This document shows positions 15,842-54,254 of a DNA stretch of 54,487 nucleotides, piece after piece (within the stretch, counting starts at the first letter, position 1; every line of letters starts with the position of its first letter). Origin of the DNA: a virus (Duplodnaviria > Caudoviricetes); IMG/VR virus record IMGVR_UViG_3300028588_000029, positions 1 to 54,487 of that record; one strand, 5' to 3'. A program made the position numbers and the translations under genes. The notes under the pieces were generated by a model, which did no database searches, was not told the DNA's origin, and saw nothing but the letters and a program-made list of their open reading frames with translations.

Positions 15842-18800
15842 GTGGTGAGGTACAGCGCCGGTACGGTCATCCTGCAGGTCGCGCCGTCGTTCCGTGGGTT
15901 CCAGGAGGCCGTCGAGAAGCGGGCCAAGGCCGAGGGCCTCCTGATGGAGCGCTACCTCTCCGATGCGTCGGAGGCTGCGGCGAAGAAGGAGAACGACCGC
16001 CGCGCCGCGACGGCGGCGCAGATGGAGCGCGACCTCGCGGCAGCGAACCGGGAGGCCGAGAAGTCGCAGCGGGCCCACCTCCAGAAGCTCGCCGAGAACG
16101 AGCAGCGGCACGCTCACCGGGTCGCCGAGATCCACGAGAGCGCCCGCGCCAAGGTCAACACCGAGGTGCAGCGGGCGGCCATCCGCGCCGAGGACAAGGC
16201 CGAGGGCCAGCGCCTGGACCGCGCCGTCGCCCGCGAGCGCGACCTGGCCAAGCGGATCCAGCGCGTCCGCGACCAGGCGCGCGGCAACGTCGTGCGCGAG
16301 GGCACCGACACCGACGGCTTCGCAGCCGCCCTGGCCGAGCGCCAGCAGAGCGCCCAGCGTCTCCGCGTCATCCGGAAGGAGGCCGAGGTCGAGAAGGGCA
16401 TCAGGTCCGACCTCGGCGACTTCACCCGGAAGCAGGCCGCGCGCACGCTCGCCGAGCAGATCGACGGCGACCGCGACCTCTGGGAGAGCCGGAAGCGTAA
16501 CCAGGCCGCCACCGTCGCCTCGTGGGCGGCCGACGTCGATGACCTCGCCGAGTTCCAGAAGCGCGCCGACGACGGGCTGTTCGAGCACCAGGTCCGCAAC
16601 CTCCGCGCTCGCCAGGCGTTCGAGCTGGCCAACTCCCGCAGCGCGCAGGCCCACCAGGCCGCGTTCCAGGCGCAAGAGCGGGCCGAGCGGGCCGTTCGCG
16701 ATCGCGACAACCAGGCCCTCGCCGCCGCGATCGCGAAGCAGGACTCCGACGCCTCCAAGCTGCGCTCGCAGATCGGGAAGGACGTCGCCCAGACGCGCGC
16801 GCAGATCCAGGCGCTGAACGCCGAGGGTCAGGAGGCGTGGGCCCGGAACTACCGCAAGGGCATGGAGTCGGGCGCGATCCCGCAGCTCCGCCGCGTCAGC
16901 GACGGCAACCCCGACGACCCCGGCGTGCGGGAGTTCAACGACAACGTCGACCGCATGAACGCGCTGCGCCGCTCCGTGGGCCTGGAGGTCCACATCGAGG
17001 ACGAGGCGCAGGCGATCGCCGAGTACGACGCCCTGATCGCCCAGCTGGAGGGCATGAAGAGCGAGCTGGAGATCCGCCCCGAGCTCGCGGGCGACGAGGC
17101 GTTCATGGCCGAGATGCGCAGCCTTATGGCGCGCGCGGACTCGATCCCGAACCCCCACAAGACGATGGAGCTCGACACCGCCAGCTTCAACGCCGAGGCC
17201 GCGCGAGTCGACGCCACCTCGCGCCGCCTGAGCCGTCGCGACATCACCAAGGACGCGAACCTGCAGACCGCCGGCTACATCGCTGGCGCCGCTCAGGTGA
17301 TCGCCGCCGACGGGGCGATGCGCAACTCCAGCCGGCAGACCCAGGCCGCGCAGAAGGAGGCCGGCAACGGCGCGGGCACGGCGGCCAACTCCTTCCGAGC
17401 CATGAACGGTGCGCTGTTCGCCGCCGTCACGATCGGCCCCGCCCTCATCCCGATCCTGGGCGGCATCACCGCTGGCCTGCTCGGCGTCGCTGCCGGCGCC
17501 GTGACCGTGGCCGGCGCGCTCGGCGTCGGGATGCTCGGCCTGTCGGGCATGGGCGGCGCCCTGACGGCGCTGGGGAACCGGGACAAGGATCTGCGCAAGC
17601 AGGCCGCCACCCCGCAGAAGAGCGGCACGACGGCGGCCAACGACGAGGCGGCGCGCGCGAAGCGCATCCGTGACGCCCTCGCCGGCCTGACCGACGCCCG
17701 TCGCAACGCCTCCCGCTCCGAGGCGCGCGCGGTGCGCGACGTCGGGGACGCCGAGGAGAAGCTGGCTGATACCCGCCGCTCGGCCGCCGACCGCGTGGCC
17801 AGCGCCGAGGACCGCCTGGCCACCGCGCAGCAGCGCGCGATCGACAACCAGAAGCGCCTCAACGACGCCCGGAAGGAGGCCTCGCGCAACCTCGAGGATC
17901 TCGCGTTCCAGATCCGTGGCGCGAACCTCGCCGAGCAGCAGAGCGTCTACGAGATGCAGCGCGCCGGCATCCGCTACAACGCCGTGCTCGAGGATGACCA
18001 GGCGACGTCGCGCGAGAAGGACGAGGCGCGGATCACCTACGAGCAGGCCGTCCTCGCGAACGACCAGGCCAAGGTCGGCAACCAGCGGCTCCGCGAGGGG
18101 GACGCCACCGCGCGCGCTGCGGGCGTGGAGGGCGCCCCCGCCGTCGTCGAGGCGAAGGAGGCCATCAGCACCGGCGCCGCCGACATCGTCGAGGCTGAGA
18201 AGGATCTCGCCGAGGCTCGCGTCAAGGGTGACCGCGACGTCGAGAGCTCGCGTCGCGACCTCGCCGACGCGCTGGACGCCCTGGACAACACCCGGTACAA
18301 CAACGTGCGCTCGCTGCAGAAGGCGGAGGAGGCGCTCGCCGAGGCGTACCGTCGCGACGCCGCCGCAGCTGCTCAGTCGACGGCGGAGTTCGACTCCAGC
18401 CTGTTCGACCTCAACGAGGCCATGAACAACCTCTCCCCCGCCGGCCAGCGGTTCGCCACCTGGCTGTACGGGCTCAAGCCGCTGCTCGACGAGCTCCGCT
18501 TCACAGCGCAGGAGACGTTCCTGCCCGGCCTGCAGGAGGGGATGCAGGGCCTGATCGACCGCTACGGGCCCGAGTTCACGACCTTCGTGGGCACCATGGG
18601 CACGGCGCTGGGCGACTCGGTCGTGAAGTTCTCCGAGTGGCTGACCTCCCCGGCGATGGCGTCGTTCTTCGAGACGATGGCCGCCAACATGCCCGCGTGG
18701 CTCGACATCTTCACGCGGATCACGACGGGCGGGCTGGGCGGCCTCCTGTCGATCTTCGAGGCCCTCGCGCCGGCCGCCACCACCATCGGTGAGGCGATCG

Positions 18801-21070
18801 CCGTCGCGGCCGAGGGCTTCGCCGTCTGGGCGGCCAGCGAGGAGGGCCAGGAGGCCATCAAGGCCTTCGGCGACTACCTCACGCAGATCGGCCCCGAGGT
18901 CTGGGCCCTGTTCGCCTCCGCCATCGCCGCACTCGCCAACGCCTTCATCGCAATGGCCCCGTACGGTGAGTCGGTCATGCTGCTGCTGACCGGGTTCTTC
19001 AACTTCATCGCCGACATGGACCCGGCCACGCTGGCGCTCATCATCCAGGGCATCTTCGCTCTGATCGCGGCGTTCCAGATCGTGTTCACCATCGGCGCGC
19101 TGGTCGGCACGATCATGCTGGGCATCGGCGTCACGGCCGCGCTCGTCATCGGCGTCATCGCCCTGGCGGTCGCTGCGGTGATCGTGTTCTGGGACGAGAT
19201 CTACGCCTTCCTGCTGAACCTCAGCACGCAGATCTCCGCCTGGTACGACAAGAACCTCGCGCCCACCTTCGACCTCATCGCCAAGGGCGCGATGTGGCTG
19301 TGGGAGAACGTCTTTGTGCCGGCGTTCGAGGGCATCGGCAAGGTGATGAACTGGCTCTGGAACGAGGTCATCTGGCCGCTGGCGCAGAACATCGGGACCT
19401 TCTGGTCCGGCGTGCTCTCCGGCCTGCAGTTCTTCTACAACGCCTTCGTGATCGCCTGGCACATCGCCGGCCTGGTGTGGCAGACCCTCTGGGACAACTA
19501 CATCGAGCCCCTCTGGACCACGTACCTCGAGCCGTGGCTGAACACCATCGCGGGCTTCATCGACGAGCACGTCAAGCCGAAGTGGGAGTCGGGCGTCAAG
19601 GCGCTCGGCGAGGCGTGGGACGCCCTCAAGGCCCTCGTGGCGACCCCGATCAAGTGGGTCATCGAGAAGGTCATCAACGAGGGGATCATCGACAACTTCA
19701 ACGACTTCGCCGGTAACTTCCCCGGCACCGTCAAGGTCAACCACGTCCCCGTGCCCGGCTGGATGGAGGGCTACGCCACCGGCGGCATCCTCCCCGGCTA
19801 CACCCCGGGGCGCGACGTGCACCGCTTCCGCAGCGCCACCGGCGGCACGCTGGACCTCTCCGGCGGCGAGGCCATCCTGCGCCCCGAGGTCACGCAGGCC
19901 GTCGGCCCGAGCTGGGTGCACCGCGTCAACGCCCTGGCCCGCTCCGGCGGCGTCAGCGCCGTCCAGCAGCACCTCGGCGGCTTCGCGACCGGCGGCATCA
20001 TCCCCTCGAGCGGCCCCCGCCACCAGGCCTTCGCCGGTGGCGGCATCTGGGGCAGCATCACGGACGCCGTCGGCGGCGCTGCCGGGATGCTGGGCGACGT
20101 CGTCGACTCGGTGATGAAGTTCGTGAAGGACCCGGCGGCGGCGCTCCAGACGGCGATCGACGGCCTGCTGGGCAACTTCGTCGGCGGGGACACCCCGTTC
20201 GGCTCGCTGGTGCTCGGCGTCCCGAAGAAGGTCATCGAGACGGCCACGAACTACGTCAAGAGCATCTTCACCGGGGAGTCGATCGCCGCCGCCGAGGCCG
20301 CGAAGGTCCAGGGCGGCGCGCTGGCCGGCCTCGAGGCTGGCGGCGCTGCCGCCCCGGCCGTCCTGCCTGGCGACGGTGGTCGCTCGTGGGCCAACCCGAC
20401 GGTCGGCCCGATCACCTCGCGCTTCGGGATGCGGACCATCTTCGGCAAGACGAGCCTCCACGCGGGCACCGACATCGCTGGCGGCGGTCGCACCTTCGCG
20501 GCCTCCTCCGGCACCGTGCGCGACGTCGGCTGGAACCTCATCGGCGGTCGGTCGGGCTACGGCATCCTGCTGCAGCACACCCCGCTGCTCACGACCTACT
20601 ACGGCCACAACCCGACGAACGGCGTCGTGGTCAACCCCGGCCAGGCCGTCGTCGCTGGGCAGCACATCGGCCGCCAGGGCGCGACGGGCAACGTGGACGG
20701 CATCCACCTCCACTACGAGGTCGCCACCGGTGGCCGGCCGGGCTCGTCGACGAACCCCGAGCCGTTCATGCGGGCGCGCGGCATCCAGCTCGGTCGCAAC
20801 GCCCCGCTGTACGACGAGGGCGGCTACCTGCAGCCCGGCCTCAACGCCGTGATGAACCTGACCGGCAAGCCGGAGCCCGTGCTCACGGCGCAGGAGCTCG
20901 AGATGTTCAAGCAGGCGGCCGACCTGCGCGGCGGCGGCGGCGACGGCACCTCGTTCGATGGTGCTAACTTCTACTCGTACGACCCGACCGACATCCTGGA
21001 CCGCGCCCGCGAGGAGCGCCGTCGGGATCTCGCGATGGCGGGTCTGGCCGAGATCGAGGTGAGCATCTAG
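15842..21070 (+). CDS. Tape measure protein with C-terminal M23 peptidase domain
   Basis: 1742 aa Ala-rich helical protein with hydrophobic and Trp-periodic segments; HAGTD (HxxxD) and HLH (HxH) M23 motifs. Confidence 0.93.
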   Translation: MVRYSAGTVILQVAPSFRGFQEAVEKRAKAEGLLMERYLSDASEAAAKKENDRRAATAAQMERDLAAANREAEKSQRAHLQKLAENEQRHAHRVAEIHESARAKVNTEVQRAAIRAEDKAEGQRLDRAVARERDLAKRIQRVRDQARGNVVREGTDTDGFAAALAERQQSAQRLRVIRKEAEVEKGIRSDLGDFTRKQAARTLAEQIDGDRDLWESRKRNQAATVASWAADVDDLAEFQKRADDGLFEHQVRNLRARQAFELANSRSAQAHQAAFQAQERAERAVRDRDNQALAAAIAKQDSDASKLRSQIGKDVAQTRAQIQALNAEGQEAWARNYRKGMESGAIPQLRRVSDGNPDDPGVREFNDNVDRMNALRRSVGLEVHIEDEAQAIAEYDALIAQLEGMKSELEIRPELAGDEAFMAEMRSLMARADSIPNPHKTMELDTASFNAEAARVDATSRRLSRRDITKDANLQTAGYIAGAAQVIAADGAMRNSSRQTQAAQKEAGNGAGTAANSFRAMNGALFAAVTIGPALIPILGGITAGLLGVAAGAVTVAGALGVGMLGLSGMGGALTALGNRDKDLRKQAATPQKSGTTAANDEAARAKRIRDALAGLTDARRNASRSEARAVRDVGDAEEKLADTRRSAADRVASAEDRLATAQQRAIDNQKRLNDARKEASRNLEDLAFQIRGANLAEQQSVYEMQRAGIRYNAVLEDDQATSREKDEARITYEQAVLANDQAKVGNQRLREGDATARAAGVEGAPAVVEAKEAISTGAADIVEAEKDLAEARVKGDRDVESSRRDLADALDALDNTRYNNVRSLQKAEEALAEAYRRDAAAAAQSTAEFDSSLFDLNEAMNNLSPAGQRFATWLYGLKPLLDELRFTAQETFLPGLQEGMQGLIDRYGPEFTTFVGTMGTALGDSVVKFSEWLTSPAMASFFETMAANMPAWLDIFTRITTGGLGGLLSIFEALAPAATTIGEAIAVAAEGFAVWAASEEGQEAIKAFGDYLTQIGPEVWALFASAIAALANAFIAMAPYGESVMLLLTGFFNFIADMDPATLALIIQGIFALIAAFQIVFTIGALVGTIMLGIGVTAALVIGVIALAVAAVIVFWDEIYAFLLNLSTQISAWYDKNLAPTFDLIAKGAMWLWENVFVPAFEGIGKVMNWLWNEVIWPLAQNIGTFWSGVLSGLQFFYNAFVIAWHIAGLVWQTLWDNYIEPLWTTYLEPWLNTIAGFIDEHVKPKWESGVKALGEAWDALKALVATPIKWVIEKVINEGIIDNFNDFAGNFPGTVKVNHVPVPGWMEGYATGGILPGYTPGRDVHRFRSATGGTLDLSGGEAILRPEVTQAVGPSWVHRVNALARSGGVSAVQQHLGGFATGGIIPSSGPRHQAFAGGGIWGSITDAVGGAAGMLGDVVDSVMKFVKDPAAALQTAIDGLLGNFVGGDTPFGSLVLGVPKKVIETATNYVKSIFTGESIAAAEAAKVQGGALAGLEAGGAAAPAVLPGDGGRSWANPTVGPITSRFGMRTIFGKTSLHAGTDIAGGGRTFAASSGTVRDVGWNLIGGRSGYGILLQHTPLLTTYYGHNPTNGVVVNPGQAVVAGQHIGRQGATGNVDGIHLHYEVATGGRPGSSTNPEPFMRARGIQLGRNAPLYDEGGYLQPGLNAVMNLTGKPEPVLTAQELEMFKQAADLRGGGGDGTSFDGANFYSYDPTDILDRAREERRRDLAMAGLAEIEVSI

Positions 21071-36874: not shown

Positions 36875-37042
36875 ATGGCCACGTACACCGAGCGCGTCCA
36901 GGTGATGCTCGACCCCCACACCGCCCATCTGCTCGAGGAAGAGCGGAACCATCGCGGCGTGCGCGGGGCCTCGATCGCGGCGCGCGAGGTGCTCAGCGAG
37001 GCCCTCGAGAACCTTCGGCGCGAGCGCGAGGCCGCCGAGTGA
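36875..37042 (+). CDS. Putative ribbon-helix-helix DNA-binding protein
   Basis: 55 aa; alternating strand ERVQVMLD followed by two predicted helices; GAGGAG RBS. Confidence 0.6.
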   Translation: MATYTERVQVMLDPHTAHLLEEERNHRGVRGASIAAREVLSEALENLRREREAAE

Positions 37043-37290
37043 GCGACCTGCAGCCGGCGTGCGCCGATGCCCCGGACCCGGAGATCTTCTTCCCGGAGGG
37101 GCGCAAGGACAAGGTGGCCATCGCGACGTACAAGGCCACCAGCTACTGCGCGCGATGCCCCGTCGTGGAGTCGTGCCTCGAGATGGCTCTCAAGTCGCGC
37201 GGCGCCCAGGTCGGCATCTTCGGCGGCAAGACGGCTGAGGAACGCGAGAAGATCATCCGCACGCGACGGCGCCGCGCTCGCGCCGTCTGA
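37039..37290 (+). CDS. whiB: WhiB-family transcription factor
   Basis: C...DPEIFFP...CARCPVVESC...GIFGG..AEER with basic tail. Confidence 0.93.
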   Translation: MSDLQPACADAPDPEIFFPEGRKDKVAIATYKATSYCARCPVVESCLEMALKSRGAQVGIFGGKTAEEREKIIRTRRRRARAV

Positions 37291-44530: not shown

Positions 44531-44904
44531 GCCCAGGCCAGCGCGCGGGTGCGGACCTTGCGGCTCAGGAACACGGGGTCGAGCACGACGTCGTACTGCA
44601 TGGTCTCGGGGATGACGTCGTGGGTCAGGAGGCGGCGCACGAGCTCGTCGGTGATGCGCTCGACGGCGGCCCGGTTCGTCGCGACCTCGTCTGCGATGGC
44701 CATCGACTGGCCGAGCTGGCGGAGCGGGCGGATGTGACCGTAGGTGGTGGAGCCCCAGCGCAGGAGGTTGTAGGTCACCCACTCGAGCTCCCACGGCTTG
44801 CCCTCGAGCACGAAGGCGGCGTTGAGGACGTCCCCCCTGCTGAGGTCGACCTGGTTCGTCTCGCCGACGAACGGGCCGTCGAGGAACTTCACGGGGCGCT
44901 TCAC
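44527..44904 (-). CDS. Hypothetical protein
   Basis: FLDGPFVG motif; GTGA overlap. Confidence 0.65.
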   Translation of the reverse strand: MKRPVKFLDGPFVGETNQVDLSRGDVLNAAFVLEGKPWELEWVTYNLLRWGSTTYGHIRPLRQLGQSMAIADEVATNRAAVERITDELVRRLLTHDVIPETMQYDVVLDPVFLSRKVRTRALAWA

Positions 44905-45113
44905 GACTTCGGCTCCCGCTTCCGCGCGACGGTGAGCTTGCGCTGGGCCTTGCACCAGGCGACGGCGTCGGCGTGCAGGTAGACGGCGCCCATCCGGAGG
45001 GTGGCCACCGGCTTCGGGGCGCCCGGCTTCTGCAGGTAGCGCCAGATGGTGTGCGGGTGGATGTCCAGCTCGAGCGCGATGTCGCGCTGGCCGGCGAGCT
45101 TGGGGATCTTCAC
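44901..45113 (-). CDS. Small HTH DNA-binding protein (AlpA/excisionase-like)
   Basis: LAGQRDIALELDI...PKPVATL..GAVY...VAW; AAGGAG RBS. Confidence 0.7.
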   Translation of the reverse strand: MKIPKLAGQRDIALELDIHPHTIWRYLQKPGAPKPVATLRMGAVYLHADAVAWCKAQRKLTVARKREPKS

Positions 45114-45274
45114 GGGGTCTCCTTCTGTGCTGCCGCGCGGGCGGCCATGCTGCGGATGAGGTGGACGATTTCGGGGTCGCGACGGACCCCGGAGCCGTCG
45201 ATGATGAGGCAGTCCTCGCCGGGCTCGGCGAAGCACGTTCCGCACTCGACGTCGTGCGCGATGGTGTCGGCCAT
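45110..45274 (-). CDS. Small zinc-finger-like protein
   Basis: CGTCFAEPGEDC...VHLIR. Confidence 0.6.
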   Translation of the reverse strand: MADTIAHDVECGTCFAEPGEDCLIIDGSGVRRDPEIVHLIRSMAARAAAQKETP

Positions 45275-45570
45275 CAGTGCCGCCTCCCCGCGCTGATCTC
45301 GACGGCGATGTCCAAGCAGGCGTCGCACACGGGGTACTGCTTCGGGTTGGCCTTCGGGATCCAGGTGTGACCGCAGACGGCCACGACCTCGGTGCCCGCG
45401 AGCCGGGCCATGTCGATGATGTCCTGCGACGTCGTGGGGTCGTCGGCGCGGGTCACGCCGTTGTCCGCCGGCCGCACCAGGTGCGCGCGGTGGTTGGGGT
45501 CGTCGTTCGTCTCGAACGGCACGAGGGTGAGCTCGATGTCGGCGACGGTGTCGGGCGTGAGGGTGGTCAC
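45274..45570 (-). CDS. DUF3039-like protein
   Basis: AH...GTEVVAVCGHTWIP..NP..YPVCDAC matches the actinobacterial family pattern as I recall it. Confidence 0.75.
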   Translation of the reverse strand: MTTLTPDTVADIELTLVPFETNDDPNHRAHLVRPADNGVTRADDPTTSQDIIDMARLAGTEVVAVCGHTWIPKANPKQYPVCDACLDIAVEISAGRRH

Positions 45571-45989
45571 GGCTGGTCCTTCCGATCGGTGGGGGTGGGG
45601 ATGTGCCAGCCCCAGGCGGGGGAGTCGGCCGGGGTGGCCGACGGCGGGGCGTCGTCATGGAAGCTGGCGCGCAGGGCGTCGAGCTTCGGGGCCGCGATCT
45701 TGTCGGCGTAGATGCCCTGGACGCTGATCGACGTCGGGCCCATCAGCCGGCGCTCGAGGTCGTGGCGGCGCTCGCGCTCGTTCTCGAGCTCGTCGCGGAG
45801 GTGGGCGATCTCGCTCCGCTGCTTCATCAGCAGGTCGGCCGCCCGCACCAGCGTGTCGGAGGGTGCCGTCACCGCCATCGCTGACTTCGCCGCCTTCACC
45901 CGGCGGCGACGCGGGCTCTCGGCGAGGGCGATCGCGGTGAAGGATGTCACCATGCCGCCGAGCAGCAGGAACAACCCCAGCGCGGTCAT
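45567..45989 (-). CDS. Membrane-anchored hypothetical protein
   Basis: N-terminal TM helix, short coiled coil; ATGA overlap with ftsK stop. Confidence 0.65.
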   Translation of the reverse strand: MTALGLFLLLGGMVTSFTAIALAESPRRRRVKAAKSAMAVTAPSDTLVRAADLLMKQRSEIAHLRDELENERERRHDLERRLMGPTSISVQGIYADKIAAPKLDALRASFHDDAPPSATPADSPAWGWHIPTPTDRKDQP

Positions 45990-47425
45990 CGCGCACCGAC
46001 CTTGCGGAACCAGCGACGGCGCGCGCGGGCGGGCATCTGCTGCGCGACCTGGGCGGCCATCGGGTTCACCGGCGCGTCCTCGTAGGTCGGGATACGGCAG
46101 TCGGCGGTGAGGCAGACGCTCGCGCCGGGGTAGGCGCGGTGGTGGTTGCACATGTAGCAGAGGCGATCGGCGGCCGTCATGGGCGTGCCGTCGGGCGCCT
46201 GGCCCACGTAGACCGGCACGACGTCGGCGACGGTGAGCGGGGGGAGCTCGCCCGGCATGGGAGGTAGCGGCTCGACCTCGGGGGCGTGCTCGACGACGCG
46301 CGTGGCGATCGGCTCGGCCTTGCCCATGACGTGGAACGTGTTGATCGTCGGCTCGAGGTCGGCGTCCGGCTCGGCCTCGTCGGGCGTGCCGTAGGTGGCG
46401 GGGTCGACCTCCTTCGGCTTCCAGCTCGCGGCGGCGGCGCGCATGTAGTCGTCGGAGACGTAGCACGAGAGCACGCGCTGGATGTTCGGGTTGCCCGCCT
46501 CGCGGAAGAGGCCATCGCCCTGGCCCAGCAGCTTCTCGGCGCCGGACTCTCCGAGGGCGACCTGGCTCTGCGTGTGAGCCGCGACGGCGAACACGAGGCG
46601 GCTCGGGACGTTGGCCGAGAACAGCGACGTGACGACGTCGGCCTTGGGGTACTGGGTGGCGGCCAGGAGGTGGACTCCGGCGGCGCGACCGAGCTGGGCG
46701 ATGCGGACCATGGGGCCCTCGGCGGCACCCTTGGTCTGCAGCATCAGGTCGGCGATCTCGTCGAGCACCACGACCAGGTAGGGGAACGGCAGGGCGGGGA
46801 GGTCCCCGATCTTGCGCACGCCCATGTGCTGCAGGACGTCGTAGCGGCGTTCCATCTCGGTGACGGCGTAGTCCAGCATCTTGAGCATGTCCGCGACCTC
46901 GGTCGCCACGGGGCCGGCCAGGTGCGGCGCTCCGGCGAAGAGAGCGAGCTCCACGCGCTTGGGGTCGGCCATCAGGAACTGGCATGTCGCGGGGGAGTTG
47001 CGCACCATCAGCTGAGAGACGATCGAGGTGAGGGCGATCGACTTGCCGGAGCCGGTCTGGCCCGCGATCAAGAGGTGGGGGAGCTTGGCCAGGTCGGCGT
47101 AGATGGCCTGGCCGTCAGTCCCGGAGCCGACGTGGAAGGAGAGGGAGGGCAGGGGATCGTCTGCCACCACCGGCGTGACCGTCGGGCGGTCGATGCGAGC
47201 CACGGGGACCTCCACGCCGACGAACGAGGTGCCCGGCACCGGAGCGATGCGCACGGCCTGAGAGGCCGTCGCCATGGCCAGCTCGGCGGAGAGCTTGACG
47301 ACGGCGTCCACCCGCGTGCCGGAGGGGATGGCCAGGTCGTAGCGCGTGACGGCGGAGCCGTGGTGCTCACCGGCGATGCTGGCGATGATGCCGTGGGCGC
47401 GGAGGGTGGAGAGGATGGCAGACAT
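45986..47425 (-). CDS. ftsK: FtsK/SpoIIIE-family DNA translocase motor (alpha-beta domains only)
   Basis: VTRYDL...VGVEVP alpha domain, PHLLIAGQTGSGKS, DPKRVEL, VLDEIADLM, RAAGVHL, GAEKLLGQGD. Confidence 0.93.
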   Translation of the reverse strand: MSAILSTLRAHGIIASIAGEHHGSAVTRYDLAIPSGTRVDAVVKLSAELAMATASQAVRIAPVPGTSFVGVEVPVARIDRPTVTPVVADDPLPSLSFHVGSGTDGQAIYADLAKLPHLLIAGQTGSGKSIALTSIVSQLMVRNSPATCQFLMADPKRVELALFAGAPHLAGPVATEVADMLKMLDYAVTEMERRYDVLQHMGVRKIGDLPALPFPYLVVVLDEIADLMLQTKGAAEGPMVRIAQLGRAAGVHLLAATQYPKADVVTSLFSANVPSRLVFAVAAHTQSQVALGESGAEKLLGQGDGLFREAGNPNIQRVLSCYVSDDYMRAAAASWKPKEVDPATYGTPDEAEPDADLEPTINTFHVMGKAEPIATRVVEHAPEVEPLPPMPGELPPLTVADVVPVYVGQAPDGTPMTAADRLCYMCNHHRAYPGASVCLTADCRIPTYEDAPVNPMAAQVAQQMPARARRRWFRKVGAR

Positions 47426-47452
47426 GCGGGGTGTTCCTTCCGGTCGGGGAGG

Positions 47453-47479
47453 TGTGAGAGATAGCCTCTCACATACTAC
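47453..47479 (-). promoter_or_regulatory. Probable ftsK promoter with overlapping inverted repeat
   Basis: TGTGAGAG-N5-CTCTCACA perfect inverted repeat at 47453-47473 abutting TAGTAT on the - strand. Confidence 0.6.
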
Positions 47480-47488
47480 GGATGGGGT

Positions 47489-47707
47489 CTAGAGGGCGCG
47501 GAGCTGGTGGAAGCGGGCGATGATCGCGGCCCGCTCTTCCGAGCCGTCGTCGTCGTAGCCGGCGAGGTGAATGGCCATGGTGAGGGCGCCGTTCGCGTAT
47601 TCGCTCTCGAGGTCGGGAGTGTCGTCGTCGTCGAACATGTCCGCCAGGATCGAAGCGGCGTTGAGAATGAGAGCGTTCCGGATGGCGTCTAGCGTGGCGT
47701 TGCGCAT
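47489..47707 (-). CDS. Small acidic hypothetical protein
   Basis: GGAGG RBS at end of upstream gene. Confidence 0.65.
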   Translation of the reverse strand: MRNATLDAIRNALILNAASILADMFDDDDTPDLESEYANGALTMAIHLAGYDDDGSEERAAIIARFHQLRAL

Positions 47708-47711
47708 GGTG

Positions 47712-48569
47712 TCAGGCCTCCAGCGTGGCGAGGTAGGTGGAGACGGCCTCGGAGAGGTGATAGCCGGCGTCGTCGGGGGTGAGCTTCTCGGAGGCCTCGA
47801 GGGCGTCGCGCAGAGCGTTGAGGGCGTCGCGCGAGGCGGCGGCGTCGGAGATGGCCAGCTCTTCGGCGGCGGCGTCGGCCTCGCGCTGCTCGCGAACCTC
47901 GTCCCACGCCTCCGAGACGAGGTCGGGCACGACGTGCCAGACCTGAGACTCTTCGGTGCCAGGCCAGTAGTCCCCGACCTCCACGCAGCCGCACGTCGCG
48001 TAGGAGAGCTCGCGGCCGTCGTCGTCGGTGAGCGTCACGGTCACGGTCTGAAACGTCCACTCGTTCTCGCGCCACGCGGCCACGTCGTCGGCGGAGTAGC
48101 AGTCTTCGCCATCCTCGCCGGGGGTGCGGCCGTCGTCGTAGGAGAGGGTCACCACGGCCGTGACGTCGTCGGGGAGCGTGATCCCGCGCGTGACCGGGGA
48201 GCCGTCGGCGTTCGTGACGTTCGTCAGCGGCTTCGACGTCACGCGGTCGAGCGCGTCGGCGTCGATGATGTAGCCGCCCGTGTGCCCGTTGAGGTAGAGC
48301 ACGCTCGCGGCGTCGTGCGCGTCGACTGCGGCGGCGTAGGCGCGCGCCACGGTCTGGCCGGCGCCACGGCTCTCGGAGTAGCGGGCGGTGGCGGCGCGGG
48401 CGGCGGCGTCAACGGTGGCGATGCGGCGCGAGGCGGCGTCGCGAGCGATGCGCTCCGGGTCGAGCGGAGCCATGCGGCCGCCGCGCCACGGCATGGTGGA
48501 GCGTCCGGCGGCGTGAGTAGCGGCGTAGGCCTGGCGACGACGGGCGGCGGTGGAGAGCTTGCGAGCCAT
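47712..48569 (-). CDS. Hypothetical protein, basic N-half and acidic C-half (starts MARKLST)
   Basis: GAAGGA RBS; ATG at 48569. Confidence 0.75.
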   Translation of the reverse strand: MARKLSTAARRRQAYAATHAAGRSTMPWRGGRMAPLDPERIARDAASRRIATVDAAARAATARYSESRGAGQTVARAYAAAVDAHDAASVLYLNGHTGGYIIDADALDRVTSKPLTNVTNADGSPVTRGITLPDDVTAVVTLSYDDGRTPGEDGEDCYSADDVAAWRENEWTFQTVTVTLTDDDGRELSYATCGCVEVGDYWPGTEESQVWHVVPDLVSEAWDEVREQREADAAAEELAISDAAASRDALNALRDALEASEKLTPDDAGYHLSEAVSTYLATLEA

Positions 48570-48609
48570 GGTGTGATCCTTCGGTCGGAGTGAGGCGGCG
48601 CGGGTTGCG

Positions 48610-48678
48610 CCGCCGTCGTGCCCGGGTGAGGTCGTGAGCCTCGCGCCGCCTACGCGGTCCCGGGCGGTAGTGCCTAGG
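48610..48678 (-). repeat. 69-bp structured intergenic repeat, copy 1
   Basis: Identical to 49874-49942; includes the TAG stop of the upstream gene. Confidence 0.92.
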
Positions 48679-49510
48679 AGACGATGCGCTCGACGCGGAC
48701 GTCGGACCACTGGCGCTCCGCCTTCGGGACCTTCCATCCGTCGAACGTCATGCGCGTGTCGTGGGCGTTCCGGAGCGGGACCGTCGCGAGCGTCGTGCGC
48801 TCCGAATCCTTCCGAGAGCGGTAGCGGCGCGCGGTGAGGTTCACCAGGTCGTCGGGCGCGACCACCTCACCGTCGATGAATCGGTGGTCGCGCGCCCCCA
48901 GCTCCACGCCGTTCCACGTCGTCACCGTCACTGCGCCCGGGACCGTGGCGAGAATGAGGCCGCGCCGCGCCTCGCGCTGGTGGCTGGTGGTGGAGGGGGA
49001 GTAGGTGACATCCGGGACGACGGCGCGACCGTCGGCGGCGATCCAGCCGATCGGCGTCTGACGCGAGAACACGACGTAGGTGGGCGCGTCGTCGCGGTAC
49101 TGCGCGACGACCTCCGGAGACATCCAGTGGTGCCAGGGGAGCTCTGCTCCGGCGGTCGCGCGGCCGGAGATGTTTCCGGCGCGGAAGTCGCGGCGATCGG
49201 CGATCGCACGGGCGCAGTCGCGCGTCGCGAACACGGTGCGGCGTCCGAGAGACTTCCGGAGAGCCGCGCGGCCCATGGCGTCGTCGTCGCGAACGATGTT
49301 GACGACGCGGCCGGCGCGGGTGAGAGAGAGAGTCACCAGGTCACCCCGGCGGAAGTTGCTCGCGGCGTAGCCGATCGAGCCGTTCGCCTCGGTCCGGTAG
49401 TCGACGCCGTCGACCTGCACGCGGTAGGTCGGGTTCCCCATGGTGCTGGTGCCGACGTGGACGGCGGAAGTGGAGATGGTGCCGGTGAGGGTGGAGAGCT
49501 TGCGAGCCAT
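48674..49510 (-). CDS. Hypothetical multi-domain protein (starts MARKLST)
   Basis: GAAAGG RBS; YVVFSRQTPIGW...YSPSTTSHQ motif recalled from phage hypothetical proteins. Confidence 0.75.
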   Translation of the reverse strand: MARKLSTLTGTISTSAVHVGTSTMGNPTYRVQVDGVDYRTEANGSIGYAASNFRRGDLVTLSLTRAGRVVNIVRDDDAMGRAALRKSLGRRTVFATRDCARAIADRRDFRAGNISGRATAGAELPWHHWMSPEVVAQYRDDAPTYVVFSRQTPIGWIAADGRAVVPDVTYSPSTTSHQREARRGLILATVPGAVTVTTWNGVELGARDHRFIDGEVVAPDDLVNLTARRYRSRKDSERTTLATVPLRNAHDTRMTFDGWKVPKAERQWSDVRVERIVS

Positions 49511-49556
49511 GGTGGTGGCCTTTCGTGAGGGTGGAGCGGGGAGGGGGGAGTTGCTT

Positions 49557-49581
49557 TGTGAGTGACAGTCTCTCACACTAT
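49557..49581 (-). promoter_or_regulatory. Probable promoter with GTGA-N7-TCAC site
   Basis: TGTGAGTG-N5-CTCTCACA overlapping TAGTGT on the - strand. Confidence 0.5.
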
Positions 49582-49684
49582 CGGCGAGAGCGCCACCGGG
49601 TGACGAGAGCGGGGAGAGCCACGGTGAGGTAGCAGAGCGGGAGGCCAATCGCGGCCCAGAGCAGCGGGGCGGCCCAGAGAGGCA

Positions 49685-49822
49685 CTAGCGCGCCGTCGTC
49701 GTCGTGCGGATAGCGGCCGGCGCGCCCTTGGCCTGGCGCGTGGCGATGCGCTCACGTCGCGCCTTTCCGAGAGCCTTGCGGGCGGCGGCGGACGGGCGGC
49801 GGGTGTGCGAGGTGGTCGACAT
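49685..49822 (-). CDS. 45-aa basic micro-protein
   Basis: MSTTSHTRRPSAAARKALGK...; GGAG RBS. Confidence 0.55.
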   Translation of the reverse strand: MSTTSHTRRPSAAARKALGKARRERIATRQAKGAPAAIRTTTTAR

Positions 49823-49873
49823 GATGTGTCTCCGATTCGTGAGAGCTTTTCGGTGAGAGACAGACCGGATGGT

Positions 49874-49942
49874 CCGCCGTCGTGCCCGGGTGAGGTCGTG
49901 AGCCTCGCGCCGCCTACGCGGTCCCGGGCGGTAGTGCCTAGG
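49874..49942 (-). repeat. 69-bp structured intergenic repeat, copy 2
   Basis: Identical to 48610-48678. Confidence 0.92.
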
Positions 49943-50246
49943 CGTCGTCGTCCGCGTGGGCGAGGCAGTCAGCGGCGATCCAGCCGCGCGCCCGGTAGTC
50001 GGTCGAGCAGAGGCAGGGGACCTCTTCAACGTGGAAGGCGTACGTGCCGCCCATGGGGACCGAACCGGCGGCGTCACGGTTCGTGACGTGCAGCGCCGTG
50101 TGCGCCTCGAGGTACGCGCCGTCGTCGGCGATGTCGTTGATCTCGGATGCGACGTACTCCCACGCCTCGCGCGCCGTGGAGAACGTCAGGACGTCGTCGG
50201 TCGTGTCGGGGAGGCATCCGGCGGAGTTAAGGGTGACGGTGAACAT
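49938..50246 (-). CDS. Hypothetical protein with C-terminal Cys/His motif
   Basis: Starts MFTVTLNSAGCLPD; CLC...CLAH. Confidence 0.7.
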   Translation of the reverse strand: MFTVTLNSAGCLPDTTDDVLTFSTAREAWEYVASEINDIADDGAYLEAHTALHVTNRDAAGSVPMGGTYAFHVEEVPCLCSTDYRARGWIAADCLAHADDDA

Positions 50247-50293
50247 GGTGTGTCTCTCTTTCGTGGGGTGAGGCGGGGTGACGGGGGAGGGGG

Positions 50294-50818
50294 TCAGCGT
50301 GCAGCGTGCTGGATGTACTCGGTCCCGACGGTGGCGCAGTACGTGCACACCCGGACGTCGGTCGGAGCGTGCTTCCACGCCTTACCCATGACGGCGCAGT
50401 CGCGCTCTTCGCACGTACCGTCGGCGTGACCGTCGTAGCAGTCCGCGCAGATGGCAGGCGTAGCGGAGAGGATCTCGTCCAGGACGTCGGCGATCTCTTC
50501 GGTCGTGTGAAACTCGCGGCCGCCGTCGGCGATCCAGTGGGCGCGCTCGGAGACTTCGTCGACCATGGCTGCTCCGACGTCCTGGCGGGCGTGGCTGTTC
50601 TCGCCCGTCATCATGTCCGATCCTGCCTGCACGGTCGCCCAGTCAGCGGTACTCACCAGCGCCGCTACGCCAGTCTCTGCGGACAGCCACACGGTGCGGT
50701 CGCCCACGGTCACGCCGTACTGCCATGCGCCTGCCAGCGTGCTGACCTCTGCCACACCCTGCACGCTGCTCATTGCGACTGCCTGCATGACCTGCTCGTA
50801 CGTGTACAACTCGCCCAT
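50294..50818 (-). CDS. Hypothetical protein with Cys-rich C-terminus
   Basis: AGGAG RBS; CADC, C..RDC, CTYC. Confidence 0.7.
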   Translation of the reverse strand: MGELYTYEQVMQAVAMSSVQGVAEVSTLAGAWQYGVTVGDRTVWLSAETGVAALVSTADWATVQAGSDMMTGENSHARQDVGAAMVDEVSERAHWIADGGREFHTTEEIADVLDEILSATPAICADCYDGHADGTCEERDCAVMGKAWKHAPTDVRVCTYCATVGTEYIQHAAR

Positions 50819-50819
50819 G

Positions 50820-51585
50820 TGCTCGTCTCCTACGCTCTTGCGTCCCGGTCTGCCCTGGTGGCGTTCCCTGCTGACGTGACTAACTCTCACACACATCAGC
50901 GCTGCATGTGACCAACTCTCACACATTGGTGCCGCGATCGTTGCTATTGCAACGCAAACTCGCATCGCTCACCCCGCAGCTTTTGCGCCGGCACCATCGC
51001 TATCTGACACATCGACGCGTTCGTGTCGCCAAAGCTGGCTCGTGACCGGCTCTCACGTCGACCCCCTCCCCCCCGGGCGTCGCGAGGGACCGGGGCGCAT
51101 AGGGCGTTAAATCGCTCCCGGGTATACATACGCGATAGGTTGTCACACTGTTTGTGAGAGGTAGTCACCTCTTTGCTGACAGATCCGCCCTCGCTGTCAG
51201 CAAAAGCATGGCTGAGTGACAGGGCGCTGTCAGGGGTGTCATCGGACTATTCGTTGCTATAGCAACGGAATGTCGGGATGACGTGACAGGGGGGTGGGTC
51301 CAGCCCTTCCCTATAGAAAAGGGGGAGCTACATAGAGTGATAGGTACTCACATATATAACTGTGATAGATACTCACATATACAGTAACTACTCCTTCTAT
51401 ACCTATGAGATCTAGTGTCATAGGTGTCACTGGAGTCACTAAGGGCTAGATTGCAACGAAAAGTCGATGACACCCCGATGACACCCTTGACACCCGGCAC
51501 CTCGACCACTGGCTGGCCGGCCCGAAGCCGTGGTAGCGTCGTCAACCCAGGCGCCAGAAGAGCACCCCGACCGACAGGAGCACCC
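50820..51585. other. Long non-coding divergent region: candidate genome end and replication origin
   Basis: No credible CDS; palindromes, repeated motifs and an AT-rich tract at about 51310-51425. Confidence 0.6.
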
Positions 51586-51867
51586 ATGTTCGTCCCCATC
51601 GCCACCTCCGCAGCGCCCCCCGGCTGGGCGGCCGAGGTCGAGACGCACAAGCGCTGGGAGGAGGGCCTCAGCGTCCAGCACATCCGCCTGCCCGTGGTCG
51701 TCTACCTCACGATGCGCGACTTCGCCGACGTCAAGGGCGGCAACATCGTCGTGCCGGGCGTGATCGTCGAGTCCTGCCCGCAGATCATCGCCCTCGACGA
51801 CCTCGACATGCTCGCCGAGGAGCTCGAGGTCGACACGGTCCACTTCCGCAAGATGGTCGCCGAGTGA
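51586..51867 (+). CDS. Hypothetical protein
   Basis: AGGAG RBS; extended -10-like TGGTAGCGT at 51531-51539. Confidence 0.7.
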   Translation: MFVPIATSAAPPGWAAEVETHKRWEEGLSVQHIRLPVVVYLTMRDFADVKGGNIVVPGVIVESCPQIIALDDLDMLAEELEVDTVHFRKMVAE

Positions 51868-54254
51868 CCGCCCTCGAAGCTGCCCTCGCGCAGCACCAGC
51901 GCGGCTTCATCATCCAGGCGGCGCACCGCGCGACGCACCCCTCCGGCGGGAAGCACCCGCTGGCGACTGGCTGGCAGAACGCCGAGCGGCTCTCGACGCC
52001 GGACGTCTACGCGACGTGGGACGTGGAGAACCCGCCGAACATCTCGGTGCTCACCGGGGAGCGCGCCGGCATCTTCGTCATCGACATCGACGGCGCCGAC
52101 GGCGCTACGGCCATGAACGAGCTCGTCACGAGGCTCGGCGTGCCGCCGGACACCTACACCGTGCGCACCGCGTCGGGCTCCACCCACCTCTACTACCGCC
52201 AGCCGCCCGGCGTGCACGTCCCCAGCAACAAGAGCCGCCTCGGCGCCCACATCGACCTCCGGGGCGACGGCGGGCACGTCATCGGCCCGGGGTCCGTCGC
52301 CTTCTCGAAGCAGGCGAACGCCACGGGGCCCTACGACGTGCTGCGCGACCTGCCGGTGGCCGAGTGCACGCCGTCGTGGATGGAGGCGATCCTCGCCACG
52401 GCCACGCACCAGGTCGTCCGCGCCGAGGAGGACACCTCGCCGTCGTACTCCAGCCTCTCCCCCGACATGCAGCGGGCGGCGGCCGAGTACACGAAGCGCG
52501 CGGTCGACGGCAACCGCCAGGAGATGCTCGACTCAGGCACCTGGGAGGTCGGGAAGTTCGACGACCGGGGTCGGGGCTGGGAGAAGATCCAGGCCGACGC
52601 CGCGTACAAGATCGCCGAGCTCGTGAAGGCGAACTGGAGCCCCATCTCGCTGGAGGAGGGGTGGCGCGCGTTCTCGACGGCGGCCCCGACCGACGCCACC
52701 TGGACGATGCAGGACGTCGAGGCGAAGTGGCAGTCGCAGTACGCCCGCGCGACGGCGCGCGCAATGCCGGCCAATCTCGGCCAGCGCACGGGGGGCTTCC
52801 TGATCCAGCCGGGGGAAGCCCCGGCCCCCGCTGAGGGGGGCGCAGCACCGCAGCAGCAGTGGCCCGCGCGGACGTGGGACGACCTGGGCAACTCCGAGCG
52901 CCTGCTCGCGCTGCACGGCGACCGCCTGCGCTGGGTGCCCGAGCGCGACCGCTGGGCCCGGTACGACAACGGCGTGTGGCGCCTGGAGAAGGACGCCGCC
53001 GACCGCCTGATGATCGACACCCTGGAGCGCACCGGGGCCCTCGAGGGCCACAACTACAGCGCCCAGGCCAGCGCCGGGAAGGACGGCGAGCCGACGACGT
53101 CGCAGGCCCAGAAGTTCGCGAAGTGGCTCACCACGCAGCGCTTCGCCGTGCGCGTCACCTCGGCCGTGCGCACGCTGCGGATGCGGGGCGTGGTGACCGC
53201 CTCGGCGCGCGACTTCGACCAGCATCCGATGCTGCTGTGCGTCGCGAACGGGGTCATCAACCTCGAGACGGGGGAGCTGCTCGCGCACGACCCCGCGTAC
53301 CTGTTCCAGCAGCAGACGCCGATCGCCTACGACCCCGCCGCGACGGCGCCGATGTGGGAGACCTACCTCGAGCGCGTCATGCCCGATCTGGCGATGCGCC
53401 AGTACCTGCAGCGGATCGTCGGCTACACGCTGACCGGCCTGACGTCGGAGCAGGTGTTCTTCATGCACTACGGCGTCACGAAGAACGGCAAGAGCGTGTT
53501 CCTCGAGGTCGTCGAGGCGATGCTGGGCGGCTACAGCCAGGGCATCCCGCCGTCCACGCTGATGACCAAAAAGTTCGAGCAGCACCCCGCCGACATCGCC
53601 CGGATGGAGGGCAAGCGGCAGCTCCTGCTCAGCGAGACGCCGCAGGGCGCCCGACTCGACGAGGCGCTCGTGAAGCGGCTCTCCGGCGGCGACACCGTGA
53701 CCGCGCGCGGGATGGGCGAGGAGTTCCGCGACTTCAAGATCATGGGCAAGGTGCACCTGGTCACCAACCACCTCCCGCACATCAACCACGACGAGGCCAC
53801 GATGCGCCGGATCCGGCTGGTGCACTGGGGCGTCACGATCCCCGAGGGGCAGCGCGACAAGCACCTCTCGAAGCGGATCATCTCGCGCGAGCTCCCCGGC
53901 GTGCTCGCCTGGGCCGTGCGCGGCACGCTTGAGTGGCAGAAGCACGAGCTCGCGCCGCCGATGTCGGCCGTGATGGACCTGGCCGGCTACGTCGAGCGCG
54001 AGGACCGGCTGGGCGAGTTCATCTCGGCTCGCCTGCTGCAGGACCGGGACGGCTTCACGCCGTCGGCGCAGATCTACGCCACCTACCGCGCCTGGGCCGA
54101 GTCGCAGGGCACCCGGCCCATGGAGTCGAGCACGCTGATCCAGGAGCTGCACCAGCGCGGCTTCGAGAAGCACCGCACGGCGACGCTGCGCGGCCTGCGC
54201 CTGCGGATCATCGCGGAGACCTTCACGCCGGTGCAGCCAATGTTCCAGCAGTAG
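51864..54254 (+). CDS. Bifunctional primase-polymerase fused to a P4/D5-family SF3 helicase
   Basis: GKHP, VIDIDG, TASGSTHLYY, IDLRG prim-pol motifs; NGVINL; Walker A GVTKNGKS; KRLSGGD; TNHLP. Confidence 0.93.
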   Translation: MTALEAALAQHQRGFIIQAAHRATHPSGGKHPLATGWQNAERLSTPDVYATWDVENPPNISVLTGERAGIFVIDIDGADGATAMNELVTRLGVPPDTYTVRTASGSTHLYYRQPPGVHVPSNKSRLGAHIDLRGDGGHVIGPGSVAFSKQANATGPYDVLRDLPVAECTPSWMEAILATATHQVVRAEEDTSPSYSSLSPDMQRAAAEYTKRAVDGNRQEMLDSGTWEVGKFDDRGRGWEKIQADAAYKIAELVKANWSPISLEEGWRAFSTAAPTDATWTMQDVEAKWQSQYARATARAMPANLGQRTGGFLIQPGEAPAPAEGGAAPQQQWPARTWDDLGNSERLLALHGDRLRWVPERDRWARYDNGVWRLEKDAADRLMIDTLERTGALEGHNYSAQASAGKDGEPTTSQAQKFAKWLTTQRFAVRVTSAVRTLRMRGVVTASARDFDQHPMLLCVANGVINLETGELLAHDPAYLFQQQTPIAYDPAATAPMWETYLERVMPDLAMRQYLQRIVGYTLTGLTSEQVFFMHYGVTKNGKSVFLEVVEAMLGGYSQGIPPSTLMTKKFEQHPADIARMEGKRQLLLSETPQGARLDEALVKRLSGGDTVTARGMGEEFRDFKIMGKVHLVTNHLPHINHDEATMRRIRLVHWGVTIPEGQRDKHLSKRIISRELPGVLAWAVRGTLEWQKHELAPPMSAVMDLAGYVEREDRLGEFISARLLQDRDGFTPSAQIYATYRAWAESQGTRPMESSTLIQELHQRGFEKHRTATLRGLRLRIIAETFTPVQPMFQQ

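Follow-up and report, generated by a model that had tools for sequence, protein, structure and literature searches.

A soluble FtsK-like motor with a Cys/His tail at the position of the gamma domain in a tailed phage genome

Chromosomal FtsK proteins carry an N-terminal membrane domain (4TM), a long linker, the alpha and beta motor domains and a C-terminal winged helix, the gamma domain. SftA of Bacillus subtilis is a soluble cytoplasmic paralogue of FtsK that keeps gamma. TraB, from the conjugative plasmids of Streptomyces, is a ring motor of the FtsK family that moves double-stranded DNA (dsDNA); the DNA reader that directs it lies at its C-terminus and is a winged helix specific for 8-bp repeats in clt. 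Here we describe an FtsK-like gene (45986..47425, minus strand) of the virus record IMGVR_UViG_3300028588_000029, which was analysed as a single window of 54,487 bp that spans the entire linear record. The gene encodes an intact soluble FtsK alpha/beta motor without a membrane domain and without gamma, and the position of gamma is held by a short tail with four Cys, one His and a basic tip.

The closest described proteins are the FtsK-like proteins of the Cluster J mycobacteriophages (Omega gp203, LittleE gp198; PHROG 1358). In its passages on these proteins, the Cluster J study reports that they have no membrane domain and a C-terminal stretch of about 90 residues unlike any gamma domain, and that their function is unclear, with binding to the phage DNA and translocation along it as the presumed activity (Pope et al. 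2013, PMC3706429). The window protein is of this type: it is phage-borne, holds alpha and beta only, has no membrane domain and ends in something other than gamma. Both are soluble motors that start inside alpha, with no 4TM and no Pfam gamma; they are 44-45% identical over residues 2/4-336 and belong to the same gamma-less clade. The Cluster J proteins differ in their tail of about 100 residues, which has no Cys motif, in their canonical loop II (R, S, G, K) and in their setting, which is 110-kb temperate genomes with another gene context. One more soluble phage FtsK is ordinary, such pumps having been in print since 2013. The new elements are the Cys/His tail and the re-wiring of loop II only.

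With chromosomal FtsK (2ius, 2iut, 2iuu, 6t8b/g/o) the protein shares alpha and beta, Walker A and B, the arginine finger and the sensor Gln, but it has neither the 4TM domain, long linker and gamma winged helix nor the canonical loop II contacts and R661; without gamma it has no known route to reading FtsK-orienting polar sequences (KOPS) or to activating XerD. SftA is also membrane-free but, unlike the window protein, has gamma. TraB, compared here by its description and not by its sequence, is likewise an FtsK-family motor of an actinobacterial mobile element, but the tail of the window protein is not a winged helix, and neither a clt-like repeat array nor a repeated set of 8-mers was found in the window. 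Finally, a group of metagenomic motors with a C-terminal membrane anchor (P0004, P0005, P0006, P0017 and L026) starts inside alpha, has no gamma and has a similar acidic/Pro-rich stretch; these differ in ending with a hydrophobic segment of about 35 residues followed by RRR, and in their canonical loop II. In our searches of the literature we found no description of this anchored gamma-less form.

The gene and the parts of its product are as follows.

45986..47425, minus strand: FtsK-like gene, 479 aa, ATG start; alpha/beta motor, linker, Cys/His module and basic tip
47204..47419, minus strand: alpha domain, residues 3-74; PF17854, E 2.6e-14, 53.6 bits (cutoff 22.9), profile positions 28-100 of 101
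46421..47149, minus strand: RecA-like beta (ATPase) domain, residues 93-335; PF01580 FtsK_SpoIIIE, E 6.4e-41
46610..46660, minus strand: remodelled loop II, residues 256-272, ATQYPKADVVTSLFSAN, from the alignment to 2iuu
46211..46408, minus strand: Pro/acidic linker, residues 340-405; 13 Pro and 13 Asp/Glu against 2 Lys/Arg in 66 residues
46091..46210, minus strand: Cys4/His module, residues 406-445; C423-x2-C426-x2-H429-x8-C438-x4-C443
45989..46063, minus strand: basic C-terminal tip, residues 455-479; Arg-rich with Trp/Phe, two predicted helices

The first-pass annotation of this stretch proposed a soluble FtsK motor that begins at alpha, has no membrane segment and keeps Walker A and B, and all of this holds. 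The first ~27 positions of PF17854 are absent, which places the start of the protein within alpha. No match to FtsK_gamma (PF09397) or FtsK_4TM (PF13491) appears in the open reading frame (ORF) in Pfam at E <= 0.1, and no membrane segment is seen, the best 19-residue Kyte-Doolittle window scoring 1.55, against 2.06 in the membrane ORF downstream. Every catalytic residue of FtsK is present, the trans-acting arginine finger included: Walker A reads GQTGSGKS with K128, Walker B reads LDE with D222/E223, the arginine finger is R247 and the sensor is Q258. These five residues are unchanged in 121 of 121 aligned homologues, and K128, E223, R247 and Q258, the four tabulated for the wider set, are unchanged in all 160 locus ORFs. 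The protein matches PHROG 1358 (E 6e-76). By sequence, its best solved relatives are the FtsK motors of Pseudomonas aeruginosa and Escherichia coli (E 5.5e-64 for 2iuu, to 4e-62), and the alignment to 2iuu is gap-free across the catalytic core. An AlphaFold model built from 36 sequences has a mean predicted local distance difference test (pLDDT) score of 83.9, with more than 90 for residues 1-335 and 95-97 for the alpha domain, and its top matches in PDB are again the E. coli and P. aeruginosa motors (E 1.5e-35, TM score 0.79). Matches to TcpA (7.8e-21), EccC (4.9e-17) and HerA (~1e-6) are far weaker.

Signs of decay are missing as well. The codon-position GC of the ORF is 0.71/0.48/0.94, typical of a real gene, a ribosome-binding site, GGAAGGAA, lies ~8 nt ahead of the ATG, and relatives at 56% identity keep the full length and the tail motif, which argues that the gene is not decaying.

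Other identities were considered for the motor and rejected. A packaging ATPase is set aside by the separate large terminase at 5931-7892. The type VII secretion ATPases EccC and EssC have tandem FtsK-like ATPase domains, a membrane anchor and no alpha domain; the window protein has one ATPase domain plus alpha, and its matches to EccC are far weaker than those to FtsK (1.3e-22 and weaker by sequence, 4.9e-17 by fold). For HerA, PF01935 stays under its 23.2-bit cutoff at 20.7 bits, with a match limited to the P-loop, and HerA folds match at E ~1e-6 with a TM score of 0.35. In a library of defence systems there are matches to SspH, mad8 and HerA at the level of the ATPase domain only, and these were not counted as membership.

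Behind the motor comes the Pro/acidic linker, which is modelled as disordered (pLDDT 30-53). It varies in length and sequence among the four proteins that bear the tail, namely the window protein and three metagenomic proteins, P0002 (442 aa), P0003 (492 aa) and P0009 (420 aa). The motors of these four are 46-62% identical (alignment A2), and seven tail positions, C423, C426, H429, A431, V437, C438 and C443, are invariant in all of them. The Cys/His module is modelled as short beta-hairpins, both alone and within the full protein (pLDDT 80-87), and its ligand pattern of four Cys and one His makes it a probable zinc knuckle. The tip is predicted to form two helices (455-463 and 466-478, pLDDT 50-77). 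The last 30 residues have a net charge of +6 in the window protein and of +4 to +8 in the three relatives, and each of the four basic tips contains one or two aromatic residues. Amphipathicity of the tip, taken as the hydrophobic moment against shuffled sequences, is significant in one of the four proteins (p 0.14, 0.69, 0.007 and 0.33). The composition counts, the five Cys and His positions and the charge thus bear out the Pro/acidic linker, Cys/His motif and basic tip of the first-pass annotation.

Its further proposal, that gamma has been replaced, also stands up, and no winged helix was recovered. Pfam has no gamma in the ORF, an hhalign comparison of the tail profile with a 12-sequence profile of canonical FtsK that includes gamma gives a probability of 0.3%, and the model shows beta-hairpins and no helix-turn-helix (HTH) in the tail. 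For these reasons gamma is, as judged by profile and predicted structure, replaced and not just diverged.

Relatives of the tail are hard to find. A word search with residues 385-479 returned the window protein alone among 108 candidates. Searching 1.84 billion cluster representatives with a tail profile gave only its own entry at E <= 0.001; the known bearer P0009 was not listed, being either a non-representative or below the threshold, and divergent tail bearers can therefore be missed by this search. Scans of viral, metagenome and genome collections with the alignment of the four proteins gave, among the matches listed, motor-level relatives only (residues 1 to ~380). The Cys/His module has no family in Pfam, the tail fold has no match at E <= 0.001 in PDB (by Foldseek) or in BFVD, Atlas gave no lead and the wide VIA comparison gave no Z >= 2 among 48,161 chains.

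The second new element lies in the motor itself. The first-pass annotation noticed ATQYP where FtsK normally has ATQRP, and this sequence is found at residues 256-260. For P. aeruginosa FtsK, the passages of Jean et al. (2020, PMC7321959) on these residues give R620 as the arginine finger, list R632, S634, V635, G640 and K643 as the residues of loop II that contact the DNA backbone, and assign the DNA contacts of loop I to K657 and R661. The spacing of the residues in that paper fits ATQRPSVDVITGLIK...SSKIDSR in the solved chain; this string aligns to the window protein without gaps and gives the following equivalents.

R620, arginine finger: R247 (kept)
R632, the R of ATQRP, loop II contact: Y259
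S634, loop II contact: K261
G640, loop II contact: S267
K643, loop II contact: S270
K657, loop I contact: H284
R661, loop I contact: Q288

Because the replaced arginine is the DNA contact R632, and the arginine finger R620 is kept as R247, the ATQYP change, read from this alignment, affects the grip on DNA and not the ATP site. In the set of 121 homologues, Arg632 and Gly640 are each conserved in 118 and Ser634 in 117, position 643 holds Lys or Arg in 118, and the deviants are the window protein, P0002 and P0003 only. In these three (in that order) the residues are Y/Y/H at 632, K/R/K at 634, S/P/S at 640 and S/S/S at 643, so that in 3/3 the lost Arg632 is paired with a Lys or Arg at 634. The K657 position is variable across the family (Q in 47, G in 35 and H in 14 of 121), and loss of R661 is seen in the window protein only. 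The tail-bearing P0009, the C-anchored clade and Cluster J all have a canonical loop II.

A wider view of these positions comes from 80 FtsK relatives on viral contigs of IMG/VR and 80 listed loci of bacterial genomes. Arg is present at the 632 position in 59/80 of the viral relatives versus 78/80 of the bacterial ones. Ser or Thr at 632 together with Arg at 634 occurs in 9/160 loci, two from bacterial genomes (L164, L211) and seven viral (L050, L056, L065, L076, L078, L080 and L082), and this swap suggests that a phosphate-contacting Arg can sit at either position. Loop II of the window protein therewith looks like a kept but altered DNA contact, its basic residue moved by two positions, rather than a lost grip.

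Where does such a motor come from? The protein is matched by 374 phage records, none of them beyond the motor, and the best are the Cluster J mycobacteriophages. Its motor is ~40-45% identical to actinobacterial FtsK, and among plasmids the best match, at 40% identity, comes from Micromonospora and is named 'DNA translocase FtsK'. In the IMG/VR set, which is reduced to 79 for the Pfam count by leaving out L040, gamma is present in 31/79 and absent in 48/79, two of the 48 being cut by the contig end; many of the gamma-less viral forms are 340-470 residues long with nothing ahead of alpha. The short form is found in L191 alone among the 80 bacterial-genome loci listed. On viral contigs, FtsK most often has this soluble build without gamma.

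A phylogeny against chromosomal FtsK, as the first-pass annotation had suggested, sets these forms beside canonical actinobacterial FtsK. The careful maximum-likelihood tree covers the motor region in 60 rows and 361 columns (LG+G4, midpoint root; support as ultrafast bootstrap / Shimodaira-Hasegawa-like approximate likelihood ratio test, SH-aLRT), with the long branches L049 and L075 left out. The window protein groups with P0002 and P0003 at 100/100, and these group with P0009 and L054, a viral contig whose protein has no Cys tail, at 97/90. The Cys-tail forms and L054 then join the C-anchored P0004, P0005, P0006 and P0017 at 100/99, and all 18 gamma-less actino-type forms, Cluster J (L006) included, make up one clade at 93/82. 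In a quick tree, on which the sister relation rests, this gamma-less group stands beside the gamma-bearing canonical actinobacterial FtsKs (SH-aLRT 94). A single origin of the Cys tail, i.e. the four bearers without L054, is not rejected by the approximately unbiased (AU) test (p 0.163). The simplest reading of these trees would be one old capture of an actinobacterial motor minus its membrane and gamma parts, after which the C-termini diversified.

What follows the motor differs within the gamma-less clade and may be nothing, a helical tail of ~100 residues (Cluster J), a membrane anchor or the Cys4/His tail. P0004, P0005, P0006, P0017 and L026:5962-7290 are tail-anchored, that is, gamma-less motors with a C-terminal hydrophobic anchor and RRR; P0017 is present on 14 contigs, the longest of 216 kb. 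In proteins of ~630 aa from five further loci (L053:5068-6960, L055:5068-6960 and L062-L064:5086-6966) an N-terminal PD-(D/E)XK nuclease (E ~1e-10) is joined to a gamma-less FtsK motor. The nearest viral-contig relative of the window protein is the FtsK-like ORF 5917-7311 of L054 (IMG/VR, 54,073 bp, G+C 0.69), which has a Cys-free tail of 127 residues.

The FtsK-like gene is the fifth in a leftward operon that leaves a putative control region at 50.25-51.59 kb. Its upstream neighbours are unknown ORFs. The parts of the operon around the gene are listed here.

47489-47707, minus strand: acidic ORF, 72 aa, directly upstream of the FtsK-like gene
47453..47473, no strand: perfect palindrome TGTGAGAG-N5-CTCTCACA, read directly, in the 63-bp gap upstream of the FtsK-like gene
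45567..45989, minus strand: membrane/coiled-coil ORF, 140 aa; N-terminal membrane helix at ~residues 4-22, RRRR, then a charged helical region
45274-45570, minus strand: DUF3039 protein, E 5.7e-12
45110-45274, minus strand: Phage_zn_bind_8 protein, E 3e-8
44901-45113, minus strand: small HTH protein, weak match

The 72-aa acidic ORF has no family in Pfam, PHROG or PADLOC. Two further small Cys-rich proteins are encoded in the operon after the membrane ORF (44901-45570 stretch).

Coupling of the motor to a downstream membrane protein that might anchor it was another suggestion of the first-pass annotation, and it holds for this genome and not beyond. The start of ORF 45567-45989 overlaps the stop of the FtsK-like gene as ATGA (read directly), and the ORF has a Kyte-Doolittle peak of 2.06 at residue 4 and a third-codon-position G+C (GC3) of 0.95. 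It has no family in Pfam or PHROG, its Atlas scores are below 0.9, a search of 5.8 billion proteins returned only the ORF itself among 144 candidates, and it does not resemble the anchor fused to the motor in P0004. The counterpart in L054, which likewise overlaps the stop of its FtsK gene, encodes a soluble protein, and when the L054 locus is compared with 16 window proteins the motor alone matches and the 15 other neighbours do not. By a crude count, a membrane ORF lies downstream of 3/27 short viral FtsKs versus 8/28 gamma-bearing ones. Since the downstream gene of L054 is soluble and membrane ORFs are no commoner after short FtsKs, the coupling is real in this genome but not a conserved feature. 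That ORF 45567-45989 belongs to the same system as the motor is a hypothesis.

An own promoter for the gene, also suggested earlier, could not be confirmed: a scan of 44800-51700 for the sigma-70 consensus found none. The palindrome in the upstream gap is, however, related to a motif, GTGAGAG-N4-TCAC, that is repeated in the early control region. Allowing <=1 mismatch, this motif has 10 matches in the window versus 1.53 +/- 1.27 in shuffled sequences, and 0/100 shuffles reach 10. The matches are confined to 47458-51376, several of them right before gene starts, and the motif is, judging from this placement, probably an early promoter or operator common to the early genes.

Motif sites: 47453-47473, 49557-49579, 50876-50893, 50908-50925, 51042-51056, 51151-51168, 51337-51351, 51362-51376

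The region at 50250-51590, which is 1.3 kb long and gene-poor and has a lower G+C of 0.64 (50-52 kb bin), separates the early genes that run leftward from those that run rightward. Its further repeats include the ATTGCAACG type at 50946, 51259 and 51450 and a tandem pair, GTGATAG(G/A)TACTCACATATA. The region may serve as a control region or as an origin.

The rest of the genome has a tailed-phage layout, as found in a PHROG scan of 72 window ORFs picked by GC3. The record has an estimated completeness of 93% and a G+C of 64-73%.

Rightward: helicase, large terminase (5931-7892), portal, protease, scaffold, capsid, major tail, tape measure, minor tail and lysin genes
Leftward, ~50.25 kb to 30.95 kb: small unknown genes, DNA methyltransferase, HNH, exonuclease, MazG and endonuclease VII
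37039-37290, rightward: WhiB gene
51864-54254: primase/helicase gene, starting right of the 1.3-kb gene-poor, lower-GC region described above

The portal protein is matched by 996 phage records, every one below 60% identity, with 30-32% in twelve among the matches listed. Each of the ten organism names among those listed is a genus of actinobacteria, and Mycobacterium (624), Streptomyces (194) and Arthrobacter (85) account for the most records. Because its portal relatives are this distant and carry these names, the phage is, by its sequence, a distant, uncultured actinophage of high-GC (actinobacterial) hosts. The search for an integrase, a repressor and tRNAs came up empty in the 93%-complete record; this phage may be virulent, or an integrase/repressor module may sit in the missing part. 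The tape measure (1742 aa, 15842-21070, plus strand) matches peptidase and endolysin families in its C-terminal residues ~1510-1690 and, to judge by these matches, holds an internal wall-degrading domain.

In our literature searches we found no functional study of an actinophage FtsK-like protein, and no mention of a Cys-rich tail. The Streptomyces phage papers, in the parts that concern this gene, only list it and give it no function. The reading that we prefer, and that we trust about as much as we doubt, is that the window protein is an active DNA translocase in which the tail replaces gamma as the targeting part, with DNA, membrane or a partner protein as its target. An intact phage gene, expressed early as we infer from its operon position and from the copy of the control-region motif just upstream, would yield a soluble ring ATPase of the FtsK type that most likely still pumps dsDNA. 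The knuckle would bind zinc and, together with the basic tip, take over the aiming job of gamma, the tail on its flexible leash tethering the motor to the substrate or to the place where it acts. The target would most likely be DNA, to judge from zinc knuckles with basic flanks, or else an acidic membrane or a partner protein. Activation of XerCD in the known way would not be expected, gamma being absent. The re-wired loop II (R632->Y, S634->K) would keep its grip on DNA. Candidate roles for the phage are the untangling or moving of replicating phage DNA and the clearing or displacing of host DNA or host proteins.

Several observations weigh against this preferred reading. Three of the four basic DNA contacts have become non-basic (R632->Y, K643->S, R661->Q) with one new Lys only, a net loss of positive charge in the pore that may have weakened the grip on DNA. 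Among the 7- and 8-mers of the 54-kb genome, none is both over-represented and strand-skewed, as a KOPS-like or loading signal would be; the most skewed and over-represented words are near Markov expectation and mostly track the direction of transcription. The family, profile and fold searches found no relative of the tail with a known function, and the case for DNA binding by the tail is drawn from its composition and from analogy. No RNA sequencing run containing the window stretch was found; a single DNA run contains it and may be where the record came from. Finally, the sister clade has a membrane anchor at the position of the tail, which favours a role at the membrane over one in reading DNA.

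This last point leads to a membrane-tethered pump, in which the C-terminal module would hold the motor at the membrane or septum in place of the N-terminal 4TM domain. The Arg/aromatic tip could act as a peripheral membrane helix, or the knuckle could bind the co-translated product of ORF 45567-45989, and the tethered motor, acting much like SpoIIIE or TraB, would carry phage DNA through septa or hyphal cross-walls. The hydrophobic C-terminal anchors of the closest sister clade (P0004, P0005, P0006, P0017) and of L026 follow a similar linker, and all four tail tips are strongly basic with one or two aromatics. The downstream ORF, with its ATGA overlap, has an N-terminal membrane helix and a positive-inside RRRR, and the helical part of its product would therefore be cytoplasmic. 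We nevertheless consider this arrangement unlikely: the hydrophobic moment of the tip beats shuffled sequences in one protein of four, the membrane ORF has neither a detectable relative nor a likeness to the fused anchors, its counterpart in L054 is soluble, membrane ORFs are no commoner after short FtsKs (3/27 vs 8/28), and there is no clt-like repeat set in the window. Less likely still is interference with the host, where co-assembly or competition with host FtsK would block the resolution of chromosome dimers or cell division to the benefit of the phage. The motor does derive from actinobacterial FtsK, its sister clade, to which it is ~40-45% identical, gamma is absent, the contacts R632, K643 and R661 are lost and the operon is early; but a mere poison subunit has no need of the ATPase residues, all of which are strictly kept, a basic residue has been regained in loop II, and a divergence of ~55-60% makes mixed rings uncertain. 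The canonical loop II of P0009, the C-anchored clade and Cluster J further implies that the common function of the family is independent of a weakened grip.

We think it similarly improbable that the gene is a passenger ('moron'), i.e. a host-captured cassette carried by unrelated actinophages, with a lineage-specific tail of little consequence. Its PHROG class is 'moron, auxiliary metabolic gene and host takeover', the window and L054 do not share synteny, the C-terminal regions vary freely in the clade, and the Streptomyces phage papers, where they list the gene, assign it no function. Yet seven tail positions are invariant on motors that are only 46-62% identical, which points to selection on the tail, and the gamma-less clade is old, widespread on viral contigs and has its catalytic residues fully kept.

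Phage copies of FtsK are widespread, as the number of matching phage records illustrates, and they are listed in actinophage papers without an assigned role. In the window protein a tiny, sharply conserved module sits at the position where chromosomal FtsK has its DNA reader, and the natural re-wiring of loop II, independently recurrent in other lineages, could inform how FtsK holds DNA. A broader proposal, tentative and on balance doubtful, is that the actinophage FtsK is one conserved engine that has been re-aimed by swaps of its C-terminus. The Cys4/His knuckle with its Arg-rich tip would then be an undescribed aiming device in place of gamma, which loads the motor on phage DNA or holds it at the membrane or septum, so as to move or sort DNA in a compartmented actinobacterial host. 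If it is true that the tails are interchangeable aiming devices, this would explain why phages keep the engine and not the membrane or gamma parts.

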